Numbered from the stretch's first letter, positions 41,212 to 53,841 are shown. The stretch is DNA of 64,000 nt from Escherichia coli (GCF_003019035.1 NZ_CP027448.1); one strand, 5' to 3'. Made by a program: numbers and translations. Notes: generated by a model not told the origin, from the letters alone.

Positions 41212-41895
41212 TTACGCAGCCTCCGGTTCAAACCAGTTATCATTCGCGGCCCCCTGCTGCATGGCCCGTTGCACGGCGGCCATTCGTTGCTGTCCGGCAC
41301 GGTGATACTGTTCAAGCAGCTCGATACCGATATACCGGCGTCCGGACTGAAGGGCGACCACGCAGGTTGAGCCGCTGCCTGCAAACGGGTCCAGCACAAT
41401 CGCGTTCGGATGTGTGAAGCTCTCAATCAGTGGTTGCAGGCTGGTAACGGGCTTTTCCGTCGGGTGATGGCGGTTGCCTGAATATTTCCAGCCCAGCACG
41501 TCCGGCAGCAGGTTTTGTGGCAGACGTGGACGGCCTTTTGCCAGGATGTAGGCGCATTCGTGGCGATAGCCCACATATGCGGCCTTCGATGTGTAGTTTT
41601 TGGTGAAGACCAGGTGCTCGACCACACTGAATCCCGCATTTTTCCAGGCGGCCATAAAGCGATCGACGCGGTTCCAGCCATAGAGGCTCACCATCAGCGC
41701 GTCTTTTTTCAGCACACGGTACATTTCATTACAGGCCGGTTGCAGCCATTCATCGGTTTTATCACCCGCGATGGTACGTCCCTGACGGTCACGAAAACCG
41801 ACGAGGTACGGCGGGTCAGTCAGCATGAAATCAATGGCGTTATCAGGGATACGGGCCATAACATCGATGCAGTTACCGAGGACAAAACGGGACAT
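41212..41895 (-). CDS. DNA methyltransferase (N6-adenine/N4-cytosine family, DPPY motif), orphan
   Basis: 227 aa with DPPY (motif IV) preceding FAGSGST (motif I); no cognate nuclease nearby. Confidence 0.85.
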   Translation of the reverse strand: MSRFVLGNCIDVMARIPDNAIDFMLTDPPYLVGFRDRQGRTIAGDKTDEWLQPACNEMYRVLKKDALMVSLYGWNRVDRFMAAWKNAGFSVVEHLVFTKNYTSKAAYVGYRHECAYILAKGRPRLPQNLLPDVLGWKYSGNRHHPTEKPVTSLQPLIESFTHPNAIVLDPFAGSGSTCVVALQSGRRYIGIELLEQYHRAGQQRMAAVQRAMQQGAANDNWFEPEAA

Positions 41896-43598: not shown

Positions 43599-43847
43599 AT
43601 GATCCGCATTGAAATTCTTTTCGACCGCCAGAGCACAAAAAACCTCAAATCAGGCACACTTCAGGCGCTACAGAATGAAATCGAACAACGACTGAAACCA
43701 CACTACCCGGAAATCTGGCTGCGTATAGACCAGGGCAGCGCCCCGTCTGTATCTGTCACAGGAGCCCGCAACGACAAGGATAAAGAACGTATCCTGTCTC
43801 TGCTGGAAGAAATCTGGCAGGACGACAGCTGGCTGCCTGCAGCATGA
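43599..43847 (+). CDS. impC: DinI-like small protein (ImpC-like)
   Basis: 82 aa MIRIEILFDRQ...EEIWQDDSWLPAA; start chosen downstream of the LexA box. Confidence 0.75.
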   Translation: MIRIEILFDRQSTKNLKSGTLQALQNEIEQRLKPHYPEIWLRIDQGSAPSVSVTGARNDKDKERILSLLEEIWQDDSWLPAA

Positions 43848-44281
43848 GTACCGTTTATCACCGTCCGGCTGACCCTTCAGGCGATGACAGTTACGTGCGA
43901 CCGTTGTTTGCCGATCGTTGCCAGGCCGGTTTTCCTTCGCCTGCCACTGATTATGCTGAGCAGGAACTGGATCTGAACAGCTATTGCATCAGCAGACCTG
44001 CAGCCACCTTCTTTCTGCGCGCCAGCGGTGAATCGATGAACCAGGCTGACGTGCAGAATGGTGATCTGCTGGTAGTGGACAGGGCCGAAAAACCACAACA
44101 CGGGGACATCGTTATCGCTGAGATCGACGGTGAGTTCACCGTCAAACGACTGCTGTTGCGCCCACGCCCGGCACTGGAGCCGGTTTCAGACAGCCCGGAG
44201 TTCCGCACACTGTATCCGGAAAACATCTGTATTTTTGGTGTTGTCACTCACGTGATACACAGGACGCGGGAGTTACGCTGA
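43844..44281 (+). CDS. impA: UmuD/ImpA-like S24 peptidase subunit of error-prone polymerase
   Basis: 145 aa with Ser-Lys dyad context (ASGESM ... FTVKRL). Confidence 0.88.
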   Translation: MSTVYHRPADPSGDDSYVRPLFADRCQAGFPSPATDYAEQELDLNSYCISRPAATFFLRASGESMNQADVQNGDLLVVDRAEKPQHGDIVIAEIDGEFTVKRLLLRPRPALEPVSDSPEFRTLYPENICIFGVVTHVIHRTRELR

Positions 44282-44407
44282 TGTTTACACTGGCTGATAT
44301 CAACAGTTTCTACGCCTCATGTGAAAAAGTTTTCCGCCCGGACCTTCGCAACGAACCGGTCATCGTACTCAGCAATAACGATGGCTGTGTGATCGCACGC
44401 AGCCCAG
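44281..44407 (+). pseudogene. impB: 5' fragment of umuC/impB-like Y-family polymerase gene, interrupted by insertion
   Basis: Translates MFTLADINSFYASCEKVFRPDLRNEPVIVLSNNDGCVIARSP then homology is lost at 44408. Confidence 0.85.
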
Positions 44408-44453
44408 ATTATGTGGAATTGCAAGTAACGTTGTAGTGCTGATGAGGAAAATT

Positions 44454-46682
44454 TTATCTGACTACAATATTGATATCGTTTTCCGCAACAATCAGCATCA
44501 CGGCAGGTAAACCCTCCACACGCATTTTCTGGTGTAATTTTTTGATTAAATTATCATCTTCATTACTGGCTTTTGCGGAAAAGCCTTGTGGATGGGAGTG
44601 CCATTCGCCAACATAATCGACAACACGAGCGGTCAACTGGTGAACCCGTTCTAATGCTTCTTGTTGTCCCGCTTCTCCCCGGACAAAGGAGGCTGGAGAG
44701 GATTTACTGTCGATAGGTTCAGGGAGCACGTCAACCAGAATAATCGTTTTGTTCTTAAAATCTGTTATGCCAACAATTGCACCTCCTGTTTCATTAGGCA
44801 GTGCCTGTAAGCGGGTGTGCTGCAATTTTTGCGCTAAGCCCTGGTCATATTTAACAACCCATTCGCCAGAAATTATAGATACCACGGAATAGAGTTCAAT
44901 TTCATGTGCATCCATCGCGCCTGATATTTCATCAGATACCCAGATACACAATCGAGCATTTCCTTTGAGTGCAGTCTGGCGAAGTTGGCGTGAGAGGATA
45001 CCGGCATGAACATGAATACATTCACTGGACATACGTACAGAAATATCCCGACATCCACCACCGACCCAACGATCGCCATAATTGTGCTGTAGGTGAGTAC
45101 TTCCCCACTCACTGCTCAAAATTGCCCGATAGTATTGCCCCTCAATTGCATCAATTCGGCATTGTCTGTCTACATCCTCCATTAACATCACGCTAGACTG
45201 ACCCGATGGAGTCAGAAACAGGCTAACTATTCTGGGTATATCATCTTTTAACACTAGAGTCCTCGGCACCTCAAAGGTGGTACTGACATCCACAACTAAG
45301 TCTGCCTCATTCATTGCCTTAGCAATATCATCATCGTCATCAAGAATACTTTTATGGATCGCCTGAGGGAGGGGCTCATGCGGATAAATAGATTTGGCAA
45401 TATGCTGAATAATATGGGGTTTTGAGACTCCAATATGACAATCAAACCCAATATGGCGAGACAAATTATGTGGAAGAAGCCGATCTGGATCAATAAAAGT
45501 CCATGTCCCCCACCCCATTCGAATCCAAATATCAGCCAATGTACTACCAAGAGCGCCAACTCCAGCTAAAATACCTCGAAAAGCTGCACTCTCTGAATCA
45601 ACAGCAGATATGTCTCTCGCATGTGTGGCCTTCATAGCCGAACGTATTTCAACTGGTAAAAGCGGTAATTGTCGCCACTTGGTACTAATTGATCCGCCAA
45701 GAAGCCGTACGCGATGCTGTACTCCTCGCTCATTTTTTGGCGCCAGCATATCTAGTGCAGTGGCAAGTTCACCGAGTGAACTTTGCACAACATAGCCCAT
45801 CACATCCGTACGTTCTGTTTCTCCGTTTCTTAGACGGGGGATCCAAAGCAGGATAAGTAAGCCTTCTCCTTTACCAGACGTTGGGCGGATACCATCACTT
45901 GGTATTGCTTCATAAACAGCGTCAGTTAGTGGTTTTAGGAGCTCACTTCCCCATTCATTAAGTTGTTCTTCTAATTTTCCCAGATTATCCGGGTATGTAG
46001 CCACCGTAGAAACATCGACAGGAGGAACAGCAATAGTTAATAAGCGAAATGGCTTAACGCTTGAGGTATCTTGTTCTGGTACAGCCCTTAAAATAATCGG
46101 TCGCCCCTCACTGACCATCTGGAGACTGAGCTTATTGTCAGTCGCGTGATGATAATCGGGGTAATTGGCTGGCAAAATGAGCTGATAGGGACTCAAATAA
46201 AAAAGTTGCTCAAGTGGCTGATCTTCTCGATGTAGATGCAGTTCGGCCGATTCTCTAAGCCACCAAAAAATGCGCTCAAGGAATCTCTCGGGGGTCCAAC
46301 TGCGCTCAACTGCGCTCCAGGAGGCCTCATATAGGCAAAGAATTCGTGGTGAGCCAGGTTCTCCAGCATGCTGGTGAGAAAGAACAGGGAAATCTTTCCG
46401 CAATGCATGAACCAAGATAGGTATGCTTGATTTGGGATTGACCTCAATAGCCAATCGTTCTTTACGACGAATACGGGCTTGATTACCAGAAGCCACAGTC
46501 CCATCAGCAGCATCAATGATTAGATATTCCGAGCGGTTATCATTTATTTCAGAAAATCGTAATTCTCTGACTGTGACGTAAGGATGATTCTCGCATGCTT
46601 TAAGCAGCGAAATCGTTTGTGGATAAAGGCTATCGCGCCCCGATGAATCGAGGCGCTCACCCAATTCGAAATATTCGATCAT
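44454..46682 (-). CDS. Multidomain E2-like / E1-like (ThiF) / JAB-JAMM peptidase fusion protein (742 aa)
   Basis: HQH..10 aa..C (E2-like), GILAGVGALGSTLADIW...IDPD (ThiF Rossmann), EWHSHPQGFSAKASNEDD (JAMM HxH..S..D) read directly from the translation; ATGA overlap with upstream MBL gene. Confidence 0.75.
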   Translation of the reverse strand: MIEYFELGERLDSSGRDSLYPQTISLLKACENHPYVTVRELRFSEINDNRSEYLIIDAADGTVASGNQARIRRKERLAIEVNPKSSIPILVHALRKDFPVLSHQHAGEPGSPRILCLYEASWSAVERSWTPERFLERIFWWLRESAELHLHREDQPLEQLFYLSPYQLILPANYPDYHHATDNKLSLQMVSEGRPIILRAVPEQDTSSVKPFRLLTIAVPPVDVSTVATYPDNLGKLEEQLNEWGSELLKPLTDAVYEAIPSDGIRPTSGKGEGLLILLWIPRLRNGETERTDVMGYVVQSSLGELATALDMLAPKNERGVQHRVRLLGGSISTKWRQLPLLPVEIRSAMKATHARDISAVDSESAAFRGILAGVGALGSTLADIWIRMGWGTWTFIDPDRLLPHNLSRHIGFDCHIGVSKPHIIQHIAKSIYPHEPLPQAIHKSILDDDDDIAKAMNEADLVVDVSTTFEVPRTLVLKDDIPRIVSLFLTPSGQSSVMLMEDVDRQCRIDAIEGQYYRAILSSEWGSTHLQHNYGDRWVGGGCRDISVRMSSECIHVHAGILSRQLRQTALKGNARLCIWVSDEISGAMDAHEIELYSVVSIISGEWVVKYDQGLAQKLQHTRLQALPNETGGAIVGITDFKNKTIILVDVLPEPIDSKSSPASFVRGEAGQQEALERVHQLTARVVDYVGEWHSHPQGFSAKASNEDDNLIKKLHQKMRVEGLPAVMLIVAENDINIVVR

Positions 46683-47866
46683 TGGTTTGATACACCTGCC
46701 CTAGGAGCGGCGGCCGTAGCAGCACTTACCGCAGCTGAAACAGCACCAACAATAGCGGGTATTAACTTCCCGTCTCCAGCCACTTCAAATTCAAGGAACG
46801 CTGTATCTTTAAGATCCCCCGTACAGCTAAACCAACCATCAACACTGTCCAGAATATCCTCATACTCACGCTTAGCCCGGATGCACGGTGGATCATAATC
46901 ATCATCAAGTATCTGATTGCTACTCGATACAATTGTTGCCCCGGAACGAGCCTGACCTAAAGCATTACGGGCCGCATCACAAACTTCAGCATTCTCCCCC
47001 CATTGTGACCAGCTATCATAGGAAAGTGAATGCCATGAACAATGATGCGGTGTGAGGAGAAGATCATATTCTAGTGCCTCAGCATTGCTTTTGTAACGAT
47101 CCCATAATCGCTCCCAGATGAGAACTTCTGCGTCTCCACCTAATAGAAAGTGCATAGGATTACGGGAATATGCAGAGGGCAGTATTTTCATGTTCATGAT
47201 GATACTGGATTCGTTTTTAGAAAGAGCTTCTTCCAAATATTCATCATCTTCATGTGGTGCGGGCGCCAGAAGCTGTGCGGAGAACACTTCTGAAATTTGC
47301 CCGTCAATTCTGGTGAATGTATCTCCAGCTTTGATAAGAATGGCACTCAGATCATCTGTTTTGCCATTAATATCTTCACCCATGATAAGGATTCGATTAC
47401 CGCTAGATGCATAACCATGTTCCCGCCAGTATTTTACTCGGCGCCGTGCTTCTGTATTAAATGCCTGAGCATCTTCGCAAAGTGTGTGACTTTTGGAACG
47501 ACGCCGAAAAATCAATGGTGATGACCACAATTCTCGAATAATGATACGCTTTTCTGAACGTTTCACATCGTCATCTGGATAATCTTCAGGACGGCCCAGC
47601 CAGAAATGTTTACGCAGGCCACCGCAATGATCCTGATCGGGATGACTGAGCATAAAAACATCAATAAAGGGACGATCTTTTTCATCATACTTCAATCTGC
47701 TACGTAATGCCGAGGCAACATCAGGTGTGTCATCATTGGGGTTATCAGCAGCAGAGCGAATATGTACATCAATCAGAATGGATGTGCCCCGGGTGTCGGC
47801 CAAACGTACCAGTGTCATATCACCGTTGCCGACTTGGAAAAAAGTAATTTTGGCTGCCATCGACAT
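46679..47866 (-). CDS. Metallo-beta-lactamase-fold protein (395 aa) with Ala/Gly-rich C-terminal tail
   Basis: MBL-like motifs ...LIDVH..., SHPDQDHCGG, ...TPHHCSWH...; C-terminus ...AIVGAVSAAVSAATAAAPRAGVSNQ. Confidence 0.75.
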   Translation of the reverse strand: MSMAAKITFFQVGNGDMTLVRLADTRGTSILIDVHIRSAADNPNDDTPDVASALRSRLKYDEKDRPFIDVFMLSHPDQDHCGGLRKHFWLGRPEDYPDDDVKRSEKRIIIRELWSSPLIFRRRSKSHTLCEDAQAFNTEARRRVKYWREHGYASSGNRILIMGEDINGKTDDLSAILIKAGDTFTRIDGQISEVFSAQLLAPAPHEDDEYLEEALSKNESSIIMNMKILPSAYSRNPMHFLLGGDAEVLIWERLWDRYKSNAEALEYDLLLTPHHCSWHSLSYDSWSQWGENAEVCDAARNALGQARSGATIVSSSNQILDDDYDPPCIRAKREYEDILDSVDGWFSCTGDLKDTAFLEFEVAGDGKLIPAIVGAVSAAVSAATAAAPRAGVSNQ

Positions 47867-47994
47867 CTCCTTTAGGGATACGAAAGATTGAGGTTAAGAG
47901 CATCTATTGCTAAGATACATCTAGTAATTATACTAGTCTAGTAATTAGACGTATATTTTGGACTTAAATTGTAAGTACAGGAAATTATTGATAA
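47867..47994. promoter_or_regulatory. Divergent promoter/operator region with tandem direct repeats (TCTAGTAATTA x2)
   Basis: AT-rich intergenic region between divergent MBL operon and WYL gene; repeats at about 47918-47950. Confidence 0.4.
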
Positions 47995-48849
47995 ATGAGT
48001 GATAAAATGGTGAGAACTGGTCATTGGAGCCAAGAAAGACGGCTTGAATTCATCGATTTTCGCCTACTGTGGGAAGGTCGGCTTAACCGTGCAGATCTCA
48101 CGACATTTTTCAGAATTTCAGTTCCGCAAGCCTCATTAGATTTGGCAAAATATCAAGAAGTTGCGCCAAACAACATGGTGTATGATCGAACTCAGAAGGC
48201 TTACATTACGACTCCTGATTTCAAACCTGTTTTTACAAGCTTTGACAGTAATCATTACCTGAATGAACTACTTGGGCGAGAAAATGAAATAGTGGATCCT
48301 GATGATAGTTTCATTGGGTGGGTACCCCCGGTAGCCAGCCTTCCTCTCCCTGCCAGGAAAGTACAACCTGAAATATTGATTGATTTAATTCGAGCCATGC
48401 AAAGAAAACAGGCTTTGGTTGTTGATTATCGCTCAATGACTAATGAACCAGCAATTCGTACGCTATACCCAACAGCATTTGCACATGATGGGCATCGGTG
48501 GCATGTTCGTGCTTATTGTTTTAAGTCTACAATGTTTAAAGATTTTGTTCTTGGTAGGTTTTTTAAAATCGTTGAATTTGTTTCCCCACCGACATCAATT
48601 CCACAAGATGTGGACTGGAATACATTTATTGACGTGGTAATAGGTCCAAACCCTAACTACGATATGAATAAACGGCTATCTATTGAACATGATTATCAAA
48701 TGGTAAAAGGAGAAGCAAAAATCCACATACGTAAAGCGCAATTATATTATCTTAATCGTCGATTAAATTTGGATGTAAATAGCGATGGTTCAATAGATGA
48801 CAAACAGCAGATCATCATGCTCAGAATAGACGAGTCTAAAACCTATTAA
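47995..48849 (+). CDS. HTH-WYL domain transcriptional regulator (BrxR/CapW-like)
   Basis: 284 aa; central ...HDGHRWHVRAYCFKSTMFKDFVLGRFFKI... fits the WYL pattern; N-terminal HTH-like region. Confidence 0.7.
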   Translation: MSDKMVRTGHWSQERRLEFIDFRLLWEGRLNRADLTTFFRISVPQASLDLAKYQEVAPNNMVYDRTQKAYITTPDFKPVFTSFDSNHYLNELLGRENEIVDPDDSFIGWVPPVASLPLPARKVQPEILIDLIRAMQRKQALVVDYRSMTNEPAIRTLYPTAFAHDGHRWHVRAYCFKSTMFKDFVLGRFFKIVEFVSPPTSIPQDVDWNTFIDVVIGPNPNYDMNKRLSIEHDYQMVKGEAKIHIRKAQLYYLNRRLNLDVNSDGSIDDKQQIIMLRIDESKTY

Positions 48850-48861
48850 GGGAATATTTAT

Positions 48862-49380
48862 ATGAATGCGAATGATGTTAACAAACGGAATAAAGAATGG
48901 ATGATTGTAATCATTATTATCTATCTTTTTATTTTGTTATGTATAGCAACATACGCTATTGGGGCTATGTCTCTAGGTTGGTTACCAACACCTTACGCAC
49001 CATTAAGGGTGCCACTGATGTGCGGAGCAATTGCCTATATAGGTGGTTGTTTATATTGTTTTCGTGCAATTTACCTCAATAAATGTATTAGAAAACAATG
49101 GGATCCAGATTGGCATGTATGGTATTTCATTCGCCCACTGACCAGTACAATCGCAGGTGCTATCAGTTATTTATTCCTTAAGGCGGGGTTGTTAGTTTTG
49201 GAGTCTAGTTCCAATGTAGGAGCTAGTGAAATGGGTTTCTTTGCGCTGGCATTTATTGCTGGTTTTAACGTCGATAAATTTGTCGCAAAAATCGAGGAAG
49301 TTGCAAAGGCTGTCTGGGGTATTGAAAAAACTCGAAGCTCGACTAATAATGATGCGAAAAATTCGGAAAAAAAAGAATAG
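48862..49380 (+). CDS. Small membrane protein (about 4 predicted TM helices, 172 aa)
   Basis: Hydrophobic segments throughout; 12 bp downstream of the WYL gene. Confidence 0.55.
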   Translation: MNANDVNKRNKEWMIVIIIIYLFILLCIATYAIGAMSLGWLPTPYAPLRVPLMCGAIAYIGGCLYCFRAIYLNKCIRKQWDPDWHVWYFIRPLTSTIAGAISYLFLKAGLLVLESSSNVGASEMGFFALAFIAGFNVDKFVAKIEEVAKAVWGIEKTRSSTNNDAKNSEKKE

Positions 49381-49426
49381 TCTGGATGTATTTAAATTAA
49401 AATGAAATTAGTGCTGAGCTATTTTA

Positions 49427-50746
49427 TTACTTTCTCTTATTTCCTGGGGTCGCGCCCCCAGTGAGCTTATTCAAAAGTTTGTCCACTGCCTGTATATCGT
49501 TTTCTACAGCGGCTTGTTCGTCATCAGTCAAAGGGATTTCCTGCATCAGCTTGAGTAGATTCTGGCGACCTTCCAAGTATTGTGCTTCAGATGAAGATTT
49601 TGGCATATAAAATGAGCATTTTGCACATGCCATCCGATGGGGGCATTGCTCAAAAAAGTCATAAGTACAGAAACCGTGTCCAAGATCATAATAACGCCAT
49701 GGCTTCCCGGATGCTACCAGCCCTTCAGCTATCGCGTCTTGATCAATGAGAACTGAAACCATGCGGCGATTACATTCAAAGTAACCAGCTTTATCCAGTG
49801 ATCCTGCCAACCTCGTCGGTGTAATTTCGACATAATGTCGGGTAGATTCAGGTGAAGAATGCCCCAACCATTTCTGTAGCTCAAAAATATCAAGTGGTTC
49901 CCTGGCGTTGTAAAGCTGACTGGCTATAGTGGCTCTTGCCCGATGGCTGGTGATTTTACCTCTGGCATCCTGCTCAGGTATACCAGCCTTTCTGCATAGC
50001 AAAGGGATTAGCGAATTATTAATATAACTACTGTGTACCCGTTTCCCCCTGTGCATGAACAAAAAACGGACGCTTTCACCTGTTTTAGAATCTTCCTGGA
50101 GGGGGTGGGGGTTACGAACAAGTTCCCATTGTTCGATATATTCCCCGATAATAGGGTCAACTGGCTTTGTGAATGCCGCGTAAGTCTTGCTAACGGGTAC
50201 ATCTATCAGACAGATACGGGATACATTATTTTCTTCTGGCTGTTGCCAGCGGATACACCCACACTGCATACGTAGAATTTCATCACGTCTGAGGCCTCCA
50301 AATAACCAGAGAACGCTGAGTGCTCTGACCATCTCCAGTGGATAAAAATAAGGATATGCAACACAGTTTGGTAAATCCGACTCCTGCAGGTTCTGTCCGG
50401 CGTGAAGTAATTTACACCACATATCATCGGCCACAATACGAGGCTCTGGTCCAACCAGGGAAGTCAAGCTACGCGGTGCCCTGAAAACTCTTTCTGGGCT
50501 GAATCGTACAGGTATCCATCCCCATTCCTGCAAGTCATGAAAGAAAGTTCTAATATGACCCAACATCCTGGCTCTCGCTGCAGGCATCATCATTTTGCCA
50601 CGACGGTCACGATACATGCCCCCAGGGGTTGCCCATTCACCAACTTTCATTCTACAAGCGGCGGTCACCCAGACGATCGCGGTGTCCCGTGTCCAATCAG
50701 ATGGTGACAGACAGGTTGGATAGCACTCAGCTAACCAGCTGACCAC
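49427..50746 (-). CDS. Tyrosine recombinase/integrase (439 aa)
   Basis: Catalytic signature residues: ...GGLRRDE..., ...SHRARAT..., ...LGHSSPESTRHYV... Confidence 0.85.
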   Translation of the reverse strand: MVSWLAECYPTCLSPSDWTRDTAIVWVTAACRMKVGEWATPGGMYRDRRGKMMMPAARARMLGHIRTFFHDLQEWGWIPVRFSPERVFRAPRSLTSLVGPEPRIVADDMWCKLLHAGQNLQESDLPNCVAYPYFYPLEMVRALSVLWLFGGLRRDEILRMQCGCIRWQQPEENNVSRICLIDVPVSKTYAAFTKPVDPIIGEYIEQWELVRNPHPLQEDSKTGESVRFLFMHRGKRVHSSYINNSLIPLLCRKAGIPEQDARGKITSHRARATIASQLYNAREPLDIFELQKWLGHSSPESTRHYVEITPTRLAGSLDKAGYFECNRRMVSVLIDQDAIAEGLVASGKPWRYYDLGHGFCTYDFFEQCPHRMACAKCSFYMPKSSSEAQYLEGRQNLLKLMQEIPLTDDEQAAVENDIQAVDKLLNKLTGGATPGNKRK

Positions 50747-51677
50747 ACTTTAGCAAAACGTACCAACCGGACAAAATAGATGAAGGGCGAAGTACTGAGG
50801 TAGCACGCCACCGTTTGCACCATACCAGCCATTTAGTTGGTACATCAGCTGTTGCATTATATTCGCGGGGAGGACGGCGACGTTGTGTTATTCGGTAATC
50901 AACCCCTTCCTCAATAGTCCCTGATGCAGCCAGTATACGCGATAGAGTAGCTGAGGCTTCCCGGAGGGAATCCGGGCACGTTGCAGCAATCTGTTGCAAC
51001 GTGGTCACGGTGATATGGTCTAGTTGAGCATCCCTTTGCAGAAGCATTGCCATACACATGGCATTTCTGATGCCGTTGTTCCGACTATCACGAGGCACAT
51101 ATCCCAGAACCTGCATCATATTGTCAAGCTGGCTGACGGCAAAATCGGTGCTCTGTCGGCCAAAAACCTTAAGACAGAGCCGATATTGATAGAATATGCC
51201 ACAGTGTTCCAGCCGCTCAAACCCACATAGCAACCATGCTAACGCTATAACATATTGCCGACAGTTGCCGCTGGCTCCAAACCGTCGACGAAATTCCCCT
51301 TCGCTGTTGCAAATAACTTCTAACCACTCTTCTTGTGTCCAGGCCCAGTATGTTTTCCGGATGCGCTGCATCTCTAGGACTATATCGTGAATAGATGAAT
51401 TGTAGGGGGCCTTGGCCGCATGCATTTTTGTTAGCGTGTCGCGTAGTGGTAAAAGAAGGCGGGAAAGCCGTTTTTGTATATCAGGTGACCAGTTTTTACC
51501 TCCTTGCTGGAAGTGGTCGACCAATGTATCCAGTGCCGCAAGCTCGCTTTCAGAGATCTCCGATCGGGTATCCCAAAGTAGGGCAGGAAGACTGAGTGAT
51601 GTTGTCGGACAAGGCGCTGTATGTTCAGATTGCATCATGGAGAAGGATCCTGCTGTTGTAGTACAGTAAGGCGGCAA
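50727..51677 (-). CDS. Recombinase-operon middle gene (316 aa), divergent/uncertain
   Basis: Overlaps both neighbours (translational coupling); no clear R-H-R-Y motifs seen by eye. Confidence 0.55.
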   Translation of the reverse strand: MPPYCTTTAGSFSMMQSEHTAPCPTTSLSLPALLWDTRSEISESELAALDTLVDHFQQGGKNWSPDIQKRLSRLLLPLRDTLTKMHAAKAPYNSSIHDIVLEMQRIRKTYWAWTQEEWLEVICNSEGEFRRRFGASGNCRQYVIALAWLLCGFERLEHCGIFYQYRLCLKVFGRQSTDFAVSQLDNMMQVLGYVPRDSRNNGIRNAMCMAMLLQRDAQLDHITVTTLQQIAATCPDSLREASATLSRILAASGTIEEGVDYRITQRRRPPREYNATADVPTKWLVWCKRWRATSVLRPSSILSGWYVLLKCGQLVS

Positions 51678-52687
51678 GTATGCAAGGATGCGACCGTGTA
51701 ATTGAAACGACTACTCAGATCACGTGCGCTGAGATGAATATAGAGCAGAGTTGACTGGATACGACGGTGGCCAGCGAATGCAGCAATTTCGTGGATGTCC
51801 CACCCCACGCGTGCCAGTTCTGTCAGACAAAGATGTCGGAATGTGTGGGTGCTGATGAGTGGAAGATCAGCCTTAATAGCTAAACCGCGAACTACTTTTG
51901 ACCAAGTCCAGTTGCTAATAGGTTCTGCCCGATTACGCGGAGAGCGTGAGAGAAACAACGGACCGCGAGATGAGCTTAGCATACGACGTTCAGTGAGCCA
52001 TGCTGTGTAGAGTTCCCCCGTCACAGGAGAATAGGGCACAACCCGACCAAAGCGGTTTTTGGTATGCTCAGCGCGCACAGTGAGCAAGCGTTGAGAAGGG
52101 TCAATATCTCCGGTAGCTACTGTGCAAAGTTCTTCTCTGCGTAATCCGCAGTCGTAGGCCAGTGCCAGCATAAAACGAGTACGGATATCAGCTTGTCCGG
52201 CTACCTCAAGAAAGCGCAACCACTCCGCATCATCCGGGATCCACGGTAGCCGCCGCTGCAACGGCACTATACCAGCTTTTCCTTTCCCTCCGTTTTTCCA
52301 GACACCTCGTCTGACAGGATTTCTCTCCCGTATCCCCTCCTCACAAAGCCAATAGTTGTACAGTCGTACCACCGTCAGCCGGTGGCGGATAGTGGCAGCT
52401 GCCAGCTGGCGACCGGTATGCAGGCTGCGGACATAGAGTGCGACCGTATCACGTCCAGCGACAGCAGCCGTCAGGGCAACAGAGTGACAGAAAGCGAGCC
52501 AGTCATTGACGCCACGGGCATAGGCATCAATGGTGTTTGGAGCACACAGCAGGTCCTCCTGCAGGCACACCCACCGGCAAGCTGAAGGATCGGCCGACAG
52601 AAAAGGCAGCGCATCCAGCAGTTTCTTGTGCACAGCATCCCCCTTTTCGATAACAGAATGTGTTGTATGAAATATAGTCAATTCCAA
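51635..52687 (-). CDS. Tyrosine recombinase (XerC/D-like, 350 aa)
   Basis: ...CGLRREEL..., ...HTFRHLCLTELA..., ...GHRRIQSTLLYIH...; start lies 9 bp from element end. Confidence 0.85.
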   Translation of the reverse strand: MELTIFHTTHSVIEKGDAVHKKLLDALPFLSADPSACRWVCLQEDLLCAPNTIDAYARGVNDWLAFCHSVALTAAVAGRDTVALYVRSLHTGRQLAAATIRHRLTVVRLYNYWLCEEGIRERNPVRRGVWKNGGKGKAGIVPLQRRLPWIPDDAEWLRFLEVAGQADIRTRFMLALAYDCGLRREELCTVATGDIDPSQRLLTVRAEHTKNRFGRVVPYSPVTGELYTAWLTERRMLSSSRGPLFLSRSPRNRAEPISNWTWSKVVRGLAIKADLPLISTHTFRHLCLTELARVGWDIHEIAAFAGHRRIQSTLLYIHLSARDLSSRFNYTVASLHTCRLTVLQQQDPSP

Positions 52688-52696
52688 ATAACATAG

Positions 52697-53841
52697 AAGC
52701 GAAGCGGCTGGGCATAAAAATGGGAGTACCGTGGTTTCAGCTGAAGTCGGTGAAATTTCCGGAGCCGGTCATCGCCTTCTCCAGTAATTACGCGCTATAC
52801 GCATCGATGTCGAACAGGGTTATGTCTCATCTCGAGGAGCTGGCGCCGGGCGTGGAGCAGTACAGTATTGATGAGATGTTTCTCGACGTGCGGGGTATTG
52901 ACAGCTGCATCGATTTCGAGGATTTCGGCCGGCAGCTGCGTGAACACGTCAGGAACGGGACTGGCCTGACTATCGGTGTCGGAATGGGGCTAACCAAAAC
53001 GCTGGCAAAGTCAGCACAGTGGGCTTCCAAAGAGTGGCCACAGTTTGGTGGCGTGCTGGCGTTAACGCCAGGCAATATCCGCCGTACGGAAAAACTGCTG
53101 TCACTGCAGCCGGTGGAGGAAATCTGGGGGGTAGGCAGCAGGATATCAAAGAAGCTGAACACAATGGGGATAACAACTGCACTGCAGCTGGCGCGCGCTA
53201 ACCCTGTATTTATCAGGAAAAACTTCAATGTGGTTCTGGAGAGAACGGTCCGGGAACTCACCGGAGAAAGCTGTATTTCACTGGAGGAAGCACCGCCCCC
53301 CAAACAGCAGATAGTCTGCAGCAGGAGCTTTGGGGAACGTGTCACAACTTATGAAGCCATGCGACAGGCAGTTTGTCAGTACGCTGAGCGTGCAGCTGAA
53401 AAGCTGCGCGGCGAGCGTCAGTTCTGCAGGCATATTGCCGTGTTTGTGAAAACATCGCCGTTCGCCGTAAATGAGCCCTACTACGGTAATCTGGCCAGTG
53501 AAAAACTGCTCATCCCCACGCAGGATACACGGGACATCATTGCCGCTGCCGTCAGAGCTCTGGACAGGATCTGGGGGGATGGTCACCGTTACGCAAAGGC
53601 AGGCTGTATGCTGAACGATTTCGCTCCTGACGGGGTTTCGCTGTTGAACCTGTTCGATGATACTCAGCTCCGAAGCAACAGCAATCAGCTGATGAAAGTT
53701 GTGGACGGTATTAATCATTCAGGACTCGGAAAAGTGTGGTTTGCAGGCCGGGGGATTGCATCTGAATGGCAAATGAAACGGGAGATGCTTTCACCAGACT
53801 ATACAACTCGCTGGTCTGAACTACCAGTAGCGAAATTATGA
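52697..53841 (+). pseudogene. impB: 3' portion of umuC/impB-like Y-family polymerase gene (continues frame of 44281-44407)
   Basis: EAKRLGIKMGVPWFQLKSVKFPEPVIAFSSNYALYASMSNRVM...SRSFGERVTTYEAMRQAV... matches remembered UmuC/MucB; track ORF 52720-53841 starts at internal Met. Confidence 0.88.

Follow-up and report, generated by a model that had tools for sequence, protein, structure and literature searches.

An apparently complete 6A-MBL anti-phage gene pair carried by a tyrosine-recombinase element in umuC of an F-type conjugative plasmid of Escherichia coli

Introduction

In Type II CBASS, a form of antiphage signalling that relies on cyclic oligonucleotides, Cap2 adenylates the C-terminus of the CD-NTase and conjugates this enzyme to targets, while Cap3 reverses the modification. 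The CD-NTases of Type II CBASS have a flexible C-terminal tail that ends in Gly. In the related 6A-MBL system, an enzyme of the metallo-beta-lactamase (MBL) fold is paired with cap2_3, a protein in which E2, E1 and JAB domains are fused, and its anti-phage activity was reportedly demonstrated by van den Berg et al. in 2024 (Cell Host Microbe 32:1427). The present work concerns a copy of this pair in a 64,000-nucleotide stretch of Escherichia coli DNA (GCF_003019035.1, NZ_CP027448.1), termed the window in the following, from whose first letter positions are counted.

According to a later paper, which cites van den Berg et al. (2024), the anti-phage activity of 6A-MBL from Pseudomonas aeruginosa has been experimentally confirmed (PMC13276650), and a 2025 preprint lists the system among the known jumbo-phage defences (bioRxiv 10.1101/2025.09.30.679545). 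The same architecture had been described as operon type 6a by Iyer, Burroughs and Aravind in 2006 (Table 1, row 6a), where types 6a and 6b are listed as distinct (PMC1779556), and the name 6A-MBL goes back to that row. In a preprint on the Bub pathway, "Type II CBASS/Pycsar/MBL" are grouped as systems in which a fused E2-E1 conjugates signalling enzymes to unknown targets (PMC11601596). No description of the 6A-MBL mechanism was found in the literature searched, the primary paper of van den Berg et al. (2024) lying outside that search.

The gene pair and its assignment to 6A-MBL

The two genes lie on the minus strand of the window:

44454-46682, minus strand: cap2_3 gene, 742 amino acids (aa), E2-E1-JAB (open reading frame, ORF; NF058523.1; Pfam; structure model)
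46679-47866, minus strand: MBL-fold enzyme gene, 395 aa (ORF; NF058524.1; structure model)

The MBL gene is positioned upstream of cap2_3, and the pair is translationally coupled through ATGA, in which the stop codon of the former overlaps the start codon of the latter (46679-46682; direct inspection of the minus strand reads ...caaccaATGAtcgaa). NCBIfam holds two curated equivalog models dedicated to the 6A-MBL pair. The 742-aa protein reaches 661.1 bits against a cut-off of 320 with NF058523.1 ("6A-MBL_cap2_3, anti-phage 6A-MBL system cap2_3 protein"; aa 66-731), and the 395-aa protein 425.6 bits against a cut-off of 220 with NF058524.1 ("6A-MBL_enzyme, anti-phage 6A-MBL system MBL-fold protein"). 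Because both proteins exceed the equivalog cut-offs, the locus is a member of the already catalogued 6A-MBL anti-phage system and not a new system. Very probably it represents a complete and apparently functional two-gene copy, which is accompanied by a WYL-type regulator and travels as cargo of an 8.3-kb tyrosine-recombinase element in umuC of an F-type conjugative plasmid, adding another enterobacterial copy to the catalogued system.

The initial annotation, which was made from the sequence alone, had placed the 742-aa ORF and its coupled MBL-fold partner at these positions and had proposed a ubiquitin-like-conjugation defence module. The former is confirmed, far beyond chance, and the latter is supported by the equivalog matches, the domain order and the Cap2/Cap3 structural matches described below. 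Whether the architecture was already catalogued had been left open; it is, both as operon type 6a of 2006 (PMC1779556) and in the NCBIfam models.

PADLOC v2.0 contains no dedicated 6A-MBL model, and in the element it returned generic CBASS E1-E2 and JAB matches, WYL matches, and weak LmuA, RTasMBL and PDC-M48B matches. Among the seven ORFs of the element, no PADLOC or NCBIfam model for a CD-NTase found a match, nor did any PADLOC model for a cyclic-nucleotide effector (SAVED, Cap4, patatin, transmembrane effector and similar), and a dedicated gene for a beta-grasp ubiquitin-like protein (Ubl) is absent from them by ORF list, PADLOC and NCBIfam. The domain set of Cap2 plus Cap3 lacking both cyclase and cyclic-nucleotide effector, as originally read, is thus borne out.

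The cap2_3 protein combines E2, E1 and JAB domains

The domains and predicted active sites of the 742-aa protein are located as follows:

46161-46484, minus strand: E2-like domain with H103 and predicted catalytic Cys116 (Pfam Prok-E2_A; homologue alignment)
45267-45578, minus strand: E1 adenylation core with G374-x-G376-x-x-G379, D398, D400, N406, R409, K421 and D465 (Pfam ThiF; invariant columns)
about 45051-45053, minus strand: predicted catalytic Cys544 of E1, downstream of the core (invariant column; flexible loop in the model)
44481-44834, minus strand: JAB/JAMM metallopeptidase domain with E631, H695-x-H697, S706 and D709 (Pfam Prok-JAB; PADLOC JAB; Cap3 match)

Pfam resolves the protein into Prok-E2_A (aa 67-174, E 7.5e-22), ThiF (aa 369-472, E 7e-11) and Prok-JAB (aa 617-734, E 2e-9), in this order, and the PADLOC JAB models match it with a best E of 6.7e-23. 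The three motifs first noticed in the translation, an E2-like HQH..C, a ThiF/E1 GVGALGS...IDPD and a JAMM HSHP...S..D, each fall within the corresponding domain: H103-Q104-H105...C116 inside Prok-E2_A, A373-G-V-G-A-L-G379 and I397-D-P-D400 inside ThiF, and H695-S-H-P698 with S706 and D709 inside Prok-JAB. Across 110 full-length homologues with 40-99% identity to the query, conservation is complete or no lower than 97% at H103, C116, G374/G376/G379, D398, D400 and H695/H697/S706/D709, and H103 and C116 are invariant in both homologue sets (n=42 and n=110). R409, K421, D465, C544 and E631 are also present and invariant in the homologues. All the catalytic residues of cap2_3 are intact.

Searched by sequence, the PDB yielded only marginal matches for the pair (E 0.004 for part of a Cap2 E1 and E 0.05 for ComEC), so that structure prediction was needed. 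The AlphaFold model of the 742-aa protein has a predicted local distance difference test score (pLDDT) of 83.3, and its best Foldseek match is Cap2 of Enterobacter cloacae (7to3_A, Cap2-CdnD; E 1.3e-22, 645 aligned columns, about 13% identity). The C-terminal domain matches Cap3 (9ild_A) with a template-modelling (TM) score of 0.73 and 23% identity, and the BubCD structures 9eav and 9ea5 are also among the matches. The 742-aa protein is a Cap2-like E2 and E1 fused to a Cap3-like JAB peptidase. Since residues 540-544 have low pLDDT, the loop around Cys544 is read as mobile.

The MBL-fold enzyme and its C-terminal tail

The 395-aa protein has no match in Pfam. Its AlphaFold model, built from 43 sequences, has a mean pLDDT of 88.9 and a predicted TM score of 0.89, and Foldseek ranks the ComEC beta-lactamase-like domain first (9ic4; E 4.7e-13, target-based TM 0.71); next come Pce phosphorylcholine esterase, RNase J, RNase Z and beta-CASP proteins. 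The predicted metal-binding residues D16, H75-P-D77-Q-D79-H80, D245 and H274-H275 are invariant in homologues, and in the PDB sequence search the alignment with the ComEC domain takes in both H-x-D-x-D-H and PHH. The product of the second gene is thus a metallo-hydrolase of ComEC-like MBL fold whose metal-binding motif is intact. Together with NF058524, this confirms the fold first assigned to it; in both proteins, the E2, E1, JAB and MBL folds were recovered by profile and structure searches, and the motifs are not spurious. Since within the superfamily the enzyme groups with ComEC, RNase J and RNase Z, we favour the view that the effector is a nuclease or a phosphodiesterase. A role in beta-lactam resistance was also considered and ruled out by the score with blaAHM (15 bits against a cut-off of 590) and by the nuclease fold neighbours.

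Two features mark the end of the enzyme:

46682-46750, minus strand: disordered C-terminal tail, aa 373-395 (pLDDT; homologue alignment)
46694-46705, minus strand: P388-R-A-G391 motif, followed by the four residues VSNQ (homologue alignment)

Residues 373-395 have a pLDDT below 50, and within this tail a linker rich in Ala, Ser and Thr precedes a near-invariant P-R-A-G. A conserved Gly motif is found 0-6 residues from the C-terminus in 112 of 115 full-length MBL homologues, 105 of the 112 having PRAG; 23 of the 115 terminate exactly at the motif Gly and the others carry variable extensions. At distant species loci, P-x-P-H-G or ...HG occupies the position of PRAG, with 0-5 extra residues. A conserved Gly with a short dispensable extension is a hallmark of ubiquitin-like precursors. 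Because the tail is disordered and bears such a precursor-like motif, the MBL enzyme is itself taken as the conjugated moiety, and the tail pattern suggests that conjugation acts on this enzyme.

Conservation across species loci

The pair was followed through a scan of one genome per species, in which 373 loci encode a relative of the MBL enzyme; the counts of genomic context cover the best 80 of these 373. In 71 of the 80 species loci a cap2_3 homologue lies immediately downstream of the MBL gene, and 56 have a divergent WYL gene. The pair of MBL enzyme and cap2_3 is conserved across hundreds of species. The loci of P. aeruginosa, Enterobacteriaceae and Pseudomonas sp. have the same layout of WYL, MBL and cap2_3 genes, with a 4-base overlap between the called MBL and cap2_3 genes. 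Related loci adjoin restriction, Hachiman-like, AbiEi-type and other island genes.

At two loci from Acidobacteriota-type metagenome-assembled genomes (L061, 6001-9507, and L071, 6007-9448; L-numbers designate loci compared, with coordinates of their own), separate Cap2-like (E1-E2) and Cap3-like (JAB) genes are found in place of the fusion. The MBL tails at L061 and L071 end in ...KYA or ...PAGFA and not in PRAG.

The divergent WYL regulator and the intergenic region

Two further features lie beside the pair:

47995-48849, plus strand: transcriptional regulator of the BrxR/CapW type with a WYL domain, 284 aa, transcribed divergently to MBL-cap2_3 (Pfam WYL; PADLOC WYL; orthologues)
47867-47994, no strand assigned: divergent intergenic region, 128 bp, candidate WYL operator and divergent promoters

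The WYL regulator noted at the outset is confirmed by Pfam WYL at aa 127-189 and by matches to PADLOC WYL models. It is 67-69% identical to orthologues with WHD_BrxR, WYL and BrxR_CTD domains in the 6A-MBL loci of P. aeruginosa and Enterobacteriaceae, and by these features it is assigned to the BrxR/CapW type, with a predicted winged helix-turn-helix, a WYL domain and a C-terminal domain, transcribed divergently from a defence operon. Within the 128-bp spacer, a 46-bp imperfect palindrome (47912-47957) is centred on ACTAGT and is a plausible candidate for the WYL operator.

Proposed mechanism

By analogy with Type II CBASS, the locus would most likely work as follows. The WYL repressor would bind the palindrome between the divergent promoters and hold expression down until stress or DNA damage is signalled. 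The MBL enzyme would be the "ubiquitin-like" substrate, its disordered tail ending in P-R-A-G391 plus the dispensable VSNQ. The JAB domain (E631, H695, H697, S706, D709) would trim VSNQ and expose Gly391, and would probably also reverse the conjugation. The E1 domain would then adenylate Gly391 and form a thioester on Cys544, from which the MBL enzyme would be handed to Cys116 of the E2 domain and finally to an unknown target. Conjugation may prime or localise the MBL enzyme, most likely a nuclease or phosphodiesterase acting on phage or host nucleic acid, and phage propagation would be stopped. The PRAG motif with its tail of 0-6 residues offers a concrete route by which JAB, E1 and E2 could process and conjugate the MBL enzyme.

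Several observations weigh against parts of this scheme. The operator assignment has to face the finding that neither the palindrome nor other intergenic repeats show sequence conservation in related loci, and the promoter scan, which gave one promoter-like site (47907-47934, plus strand), was at chance level. The terminator scan was likewise at or below chance, and for these reasons no claims about promoters are made. The term nuclease for the MBL enzyme is a family-level guess, because the nearest structural neighbours share only about 14-15% sequence identity with it. The phage specificity may differ from that in P. aeruginosa, since the homologues there are only 59-65% (cap2_3) and 66-76% (MBL enzyme) identical. 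The domains, the intact active sites, the coupling of the two genes and their conserved linkage are findings of this analysis, whereas conjugation through Gly391, trimming of VSNQ by the JAB domain, the conjugation target and the MBL enzyme's substrate are inferred.

A 172-aa membrane protein in the same element

One more ORF follows the regulator gene:

48862-49380, plus strand: hydrophobic (membrane) protein of 172 aa, its gene 13 bp downstream of that for WYL (ORF; homologues in 6A-MBL loci)

This protein has a strong hydrophobic segment at about aa 9-42, and it found no match in Pfam, PHROGs, PADLOC or NCBIfam, nor in phage genomes. It shows 77-85% identity in the 6A-MBL loci of P. aeruginosa and Enterobacteriaceae. 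Across the species loci (Pseudomonas, Enterobacterales) it is 60-88% identical, compared with 41-57% for cap2_3 at the same loci. A homologue is present in 10 of the 80 species loci, six of which have it behind the WYL gene and four behind cap2_3. In all, 563 homologues of the protein are on record, among them those at the following positions:

L005, 3235-3810
L009, 3298-3774
L095, 6001-6459
L097, 4303-4800
L098, 4001-4486
L100, 738-1214

In Pseudomonas sp. DSV-1 the gene behind WYL encodes 261 aa; it was considered as a further homologue and rejected, since it matches the 172-aa protein only poorly (35% over a gapped alignment).

Homologues in Burkholderiales are about 60% identical, and in all four contexts examined (4/4) they lie directly upstream of a stand-alone ComEC-like MBL gene that matches PADLOC PDC-M48B with 75-520 bits; no mention of PDC-M48 was found in the literature searched. 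One of these stand-alone MBL proteins aligns to the 6A-MBL profile with an hhalign probability of 97%. The Burkholderiales pairs sit in islands or prophages that have no cap2_3. This co-occurrence with the MBL clade, with or without an E2-E1-JAB gene, points to a functional link between the 172-aa protein and ComEC-like MBL enzymes and hints at an unrecognised component. That the protein is an undescribed functional partner of this clade is a tentative idea, with the odds rather against it. If true, systems of this clade would have three components and may act at the membrane, and the 172-aa protein could be an anchor or a conjugation target that places an MBL nuclease where phage DNA enters, comparable to the joining of a channel with an MBL nuclease in ComEC.

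The carrier element, its umuC target and the plasmid

The mobile-element context that the initial annotation had pointed out takes the form of an 8.3-kb element, inserted in umuC, of which the pair is cargo:

44408-52696, no strand assigned: 8.3-kb mobile element, ATTATGTGGAATTG...CAATTCCAAATAACATAG, inserted in umuC (Klebsiella plasmid matches; junction reads)
44281-44407, plus strand: umuC 5' fragment, codons 1-42, following umuD (43844-44281)
52697-53841, plus strand: umuC 3' remainder (ORF 52720-53841)
49427-51677, minus strand: large tyrosine-recombinase gene, split into ORFs of 316 aa and 439 aa (alignment to intact 736-aa copies)
51635-52687, minus strand: tyrosine recombinase resembling XerC/XerD, 350 aa, at the element's right end (NCBIfam XerC/XerD)

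The left boundary is the start of the match in Klebsiella plasmids (window 44408-52697), and the right end at 52696 was refined from junction reads. The element is bounded by short imperfect terminal inverted repeats, ATTATGTGGAATTG and CAATTCCAAATAACAT. Its junctions lie at 44407/44408 and 52696/52697, and the flanks rejoin in frame to an intact umuC, broken after codon 42; in related records, RefSeq annotates the 3' stretch as an N-terminally truncated umuC pseudogene. The insertion inactivates the gene for the error-prone polymerase V while bringing in a phage defence. A GCCCAG...CTGGGC inverted repeat stands beside the target in umuC of this plasmid. The same element was found at the equivalent site of three different umuC genes, namely those of this plasmid, of the chromosome of E. 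coli CEC15 (L004, 5001-13290) and of a Klebsiella plasmid (L001, 4001-12337). The insertion in the Klebsiella plasmid has the opposite orientation, so both orientations occur. In the Klebsiella orientation the umuD promoter would read in the sense direction into the recombinase genes, and one may speculate that recombinase expression might be linked to the SOS response.

The 736-aa recombinase is intact in the chromosomal copy L004 and in the Klebsiella copy, relative to which the window has a 1-bp insertion (T at 50740) that splits the gene; the same split is annotated in the E. coli plasmid NZ_CP146683.1 (strain MS 196-1). In the intact ORF, Pfam Phage_integrase covers aa 439-606. Because the inserted T splits the recombinase, the copy described here may be immobile. 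The 350-aa recombinase scores 93 bits with the XerC and XerD models, below the equivalog cut-offs, and its orthologue in L004 matches a PHROG integrase. A "recombinase in trio" arrangement was considered and rejected, since there are two recombinase ORFs in the intact copies, the third one here being a product of the 1-bp frameshift.

Of 5426 complete E. coli genomes, 16 have the full element, and in the plasmid collection 37 records contain 80% or more of a 10.1-kb query made of the element and its umuDC flanks. Its spread takes in E. coli, E. albertii and Klebsiella, on plasmids as well as chromosomes. Beside a truncated umuC, about 110 further records of complete E. coli genomes, for the most part F-type plasmids of poultry and human origin, retain no more of the element than its recombinase end. 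In the one examined (NZ_CP023384.1; L003), IS1 abuts the truncation point; this record is therefore read as a deletion derivative that appears to have lost its 6A-MBL cargo, and the idea that such records represent an ancestral element without cargo was rejected on the ground of this one record.

The annotated genes of the conjugative E. coli plasmid pRHB07-C12_2 (IncFIA/FIB/FII) coincide with the window ORFs at 41212-41895 and 43844-44281, from which collinearity of the window with that plasmid follows at least over this stretch. Upstream of the element, pRHB07-C12_2 carries a tra operon with an IS100 insertion and a leading region (psiAB, ssb, hok/sok, an antirestriction gene and a DNA methylase). 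A dip in GC content at 24-28 kb of the window corresponds to the traK-traM part of the tra region of pRHB07-C12_2. With a DinI-like gene and umuD (43599-44281), the disrupted umuC makes up a plasmid-borne module of the SOS type.

Alternative explanations

The PADLOC CBASS "E1-E2" and "JAB" matches, the position of Cap2 and Cap3 as best structural matches and the lack of a CD-NTase would also suit a decayed Type II CBASS, which has lost its CD-NTase and effector and left non-functional Cap2/Cap3 remnants beside an unrelated hydrolase. Against such decay, the MBL gene and the fused E2-E1-JAB gene are conserved in their own right, being neighbours in 71 of the 80 species loci and having dedicated NCBIfam equivalogs; their catalytic residues are intact, the genes are translationally coupled, the MBL tail bears a conserved terminal-Gly motif that is read as an E1 substrate signature, and type 6a had been distinguished from 6b as early as 2006 (PMC1779556). 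As the pair is conserved and its active sites are intact, a decayed CBASS is very improbable. A housekeeping sulfur-carrier or cofactor pathway of the MoaD/ThiS kind, the alternative raised by the initial annotation, would make the protein a ThiF/MoeB-type adenylyltransferase and the MBL enzyme a metabolic hydrolase, in line with a weak ThiF/MoeB similarity in the Rossmann core and with database names such as "ThiF family adenylyltransferase". The ThiF/MoeB equivalogs, however, score 20-35 bits against cut-offs of 150-375, and no ThiS/MoaD or biosynthetic genes lie nearby, the plasmid neighbours being tra, leading-region and umuDC genes; on these two grounds the chance of such a pathway is close to nil. 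Furthermore, E2 and JAB domains are present in the protein, the location is a mobile element with a patchy distribution (16/5426 complete E. coli genomes), and related loci have restriction, Hachiman-like and AbiEi-type genes next to them.

In the DNA-uptake protein ComEC, MBL domains of the ComEC type degrade incoming DNA, and the umuC-targeting element accompanies the system in Enterobacteriaceae in every case; both points would agree with a module that mainly serves its element or plasmid, by addiction or by acting against competitors such as rival elements or plasmids that come in. A variant of this explanation makes the 172-aa membrane protein the real effector and the MBL enzyme its regulator, which would accord with the higher conservation of the 172-aa protein (60-88% against 41-57% for cap2_3 at the same loci) and with its pairing with stand-alone MBL genes. 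Either version is unlikely. The 172-aa protein cannot be a universal effector, because 70 of the 80 6A-MBL loci are without it. The chromosomal copies of P. aeruginosa are not on a umuC element, and the anti-phage activity of 6A-MBL has been experimentally confirmed according to later work (PMC13276650). A 6A-MBL defence pair thus stays the preferred reading of the locus.

Comparison with known systems

With tyrosine recombinases in tandem at one end and cargo at the opposite one, with terminal inverted repeats that are short and imperfect, and with a strong target preference, the carrier resembles the GInt, SE, RIT and Tn554 elements, which possess three or four core recombination genes homologous to Gin, Int/Tfp/Srap, Rit or Tnp proteins (PMC10214605). 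In contrast, the intact element here has two recombinase ORFs (332-350 aa and 736 aa), for which only generic tyrosine-recombinase matches were found in NCBIfam, PHROGs and Pfam, and it is set beside those groups by description only. No description of a umuC-specific element of this kind was found in the literature, and the literature searched on multi-recombinase elements makes no mention of umuC as a target.

Within the MBL fold, the enzyme shares a branch with the beta-lactamase-like domain of ComEC, LmuA-like proteins, Avs1a and PDC-M48B. It differs from them by its Ala-rich PRAG tail and its cap2_3 partner, and the sequence similarity is confined to the metal-binding motifs. With the Bil and Bub systems, the locus shares the logic of E1, E2 and JAB; those systems use a dedicated beta-grasp Ubl and separate E1 and E2 proteins, whereas here the enzyme's own tail appears to be Ubl-like.

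Type II CBASS stands closer. Its Cap2 and Cap3 have homologous E2, E1 and JAB domains, and 7to3 and 9ild are the best structural matches; both systems contain a partner enzyme with a flexible C-terminal tail and a Gly, and often a divergent CapW/BrxR-type WYL regulator. However, the locus here has neither a CD-NTase nor a cyclic-nucleotide-activated effector, Cap2 and Cap3 are fused in one chain, and the enzyme that would be conjugated is an MBL hydrolase in place of the cyclase of CBASS.

The closest system is 6A-MBL, with which the locus shares the two genes, their order, the E2-E1-JAB fusion and the MBL clade. The P. aeruginosa loci have the same WYL, MBL and cap2_3 layout, and those examined also carry the 172-aa gene after the WYL gene. 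The P. aeruginosa chromosomal copies examined are not on a umuC-targeting element, and nothing defining separates them from the locus described here. The present copy is an enterobacterial variant of 6A-MBL, located on a umuC-targeting recombinase element of an F-type plasmid.

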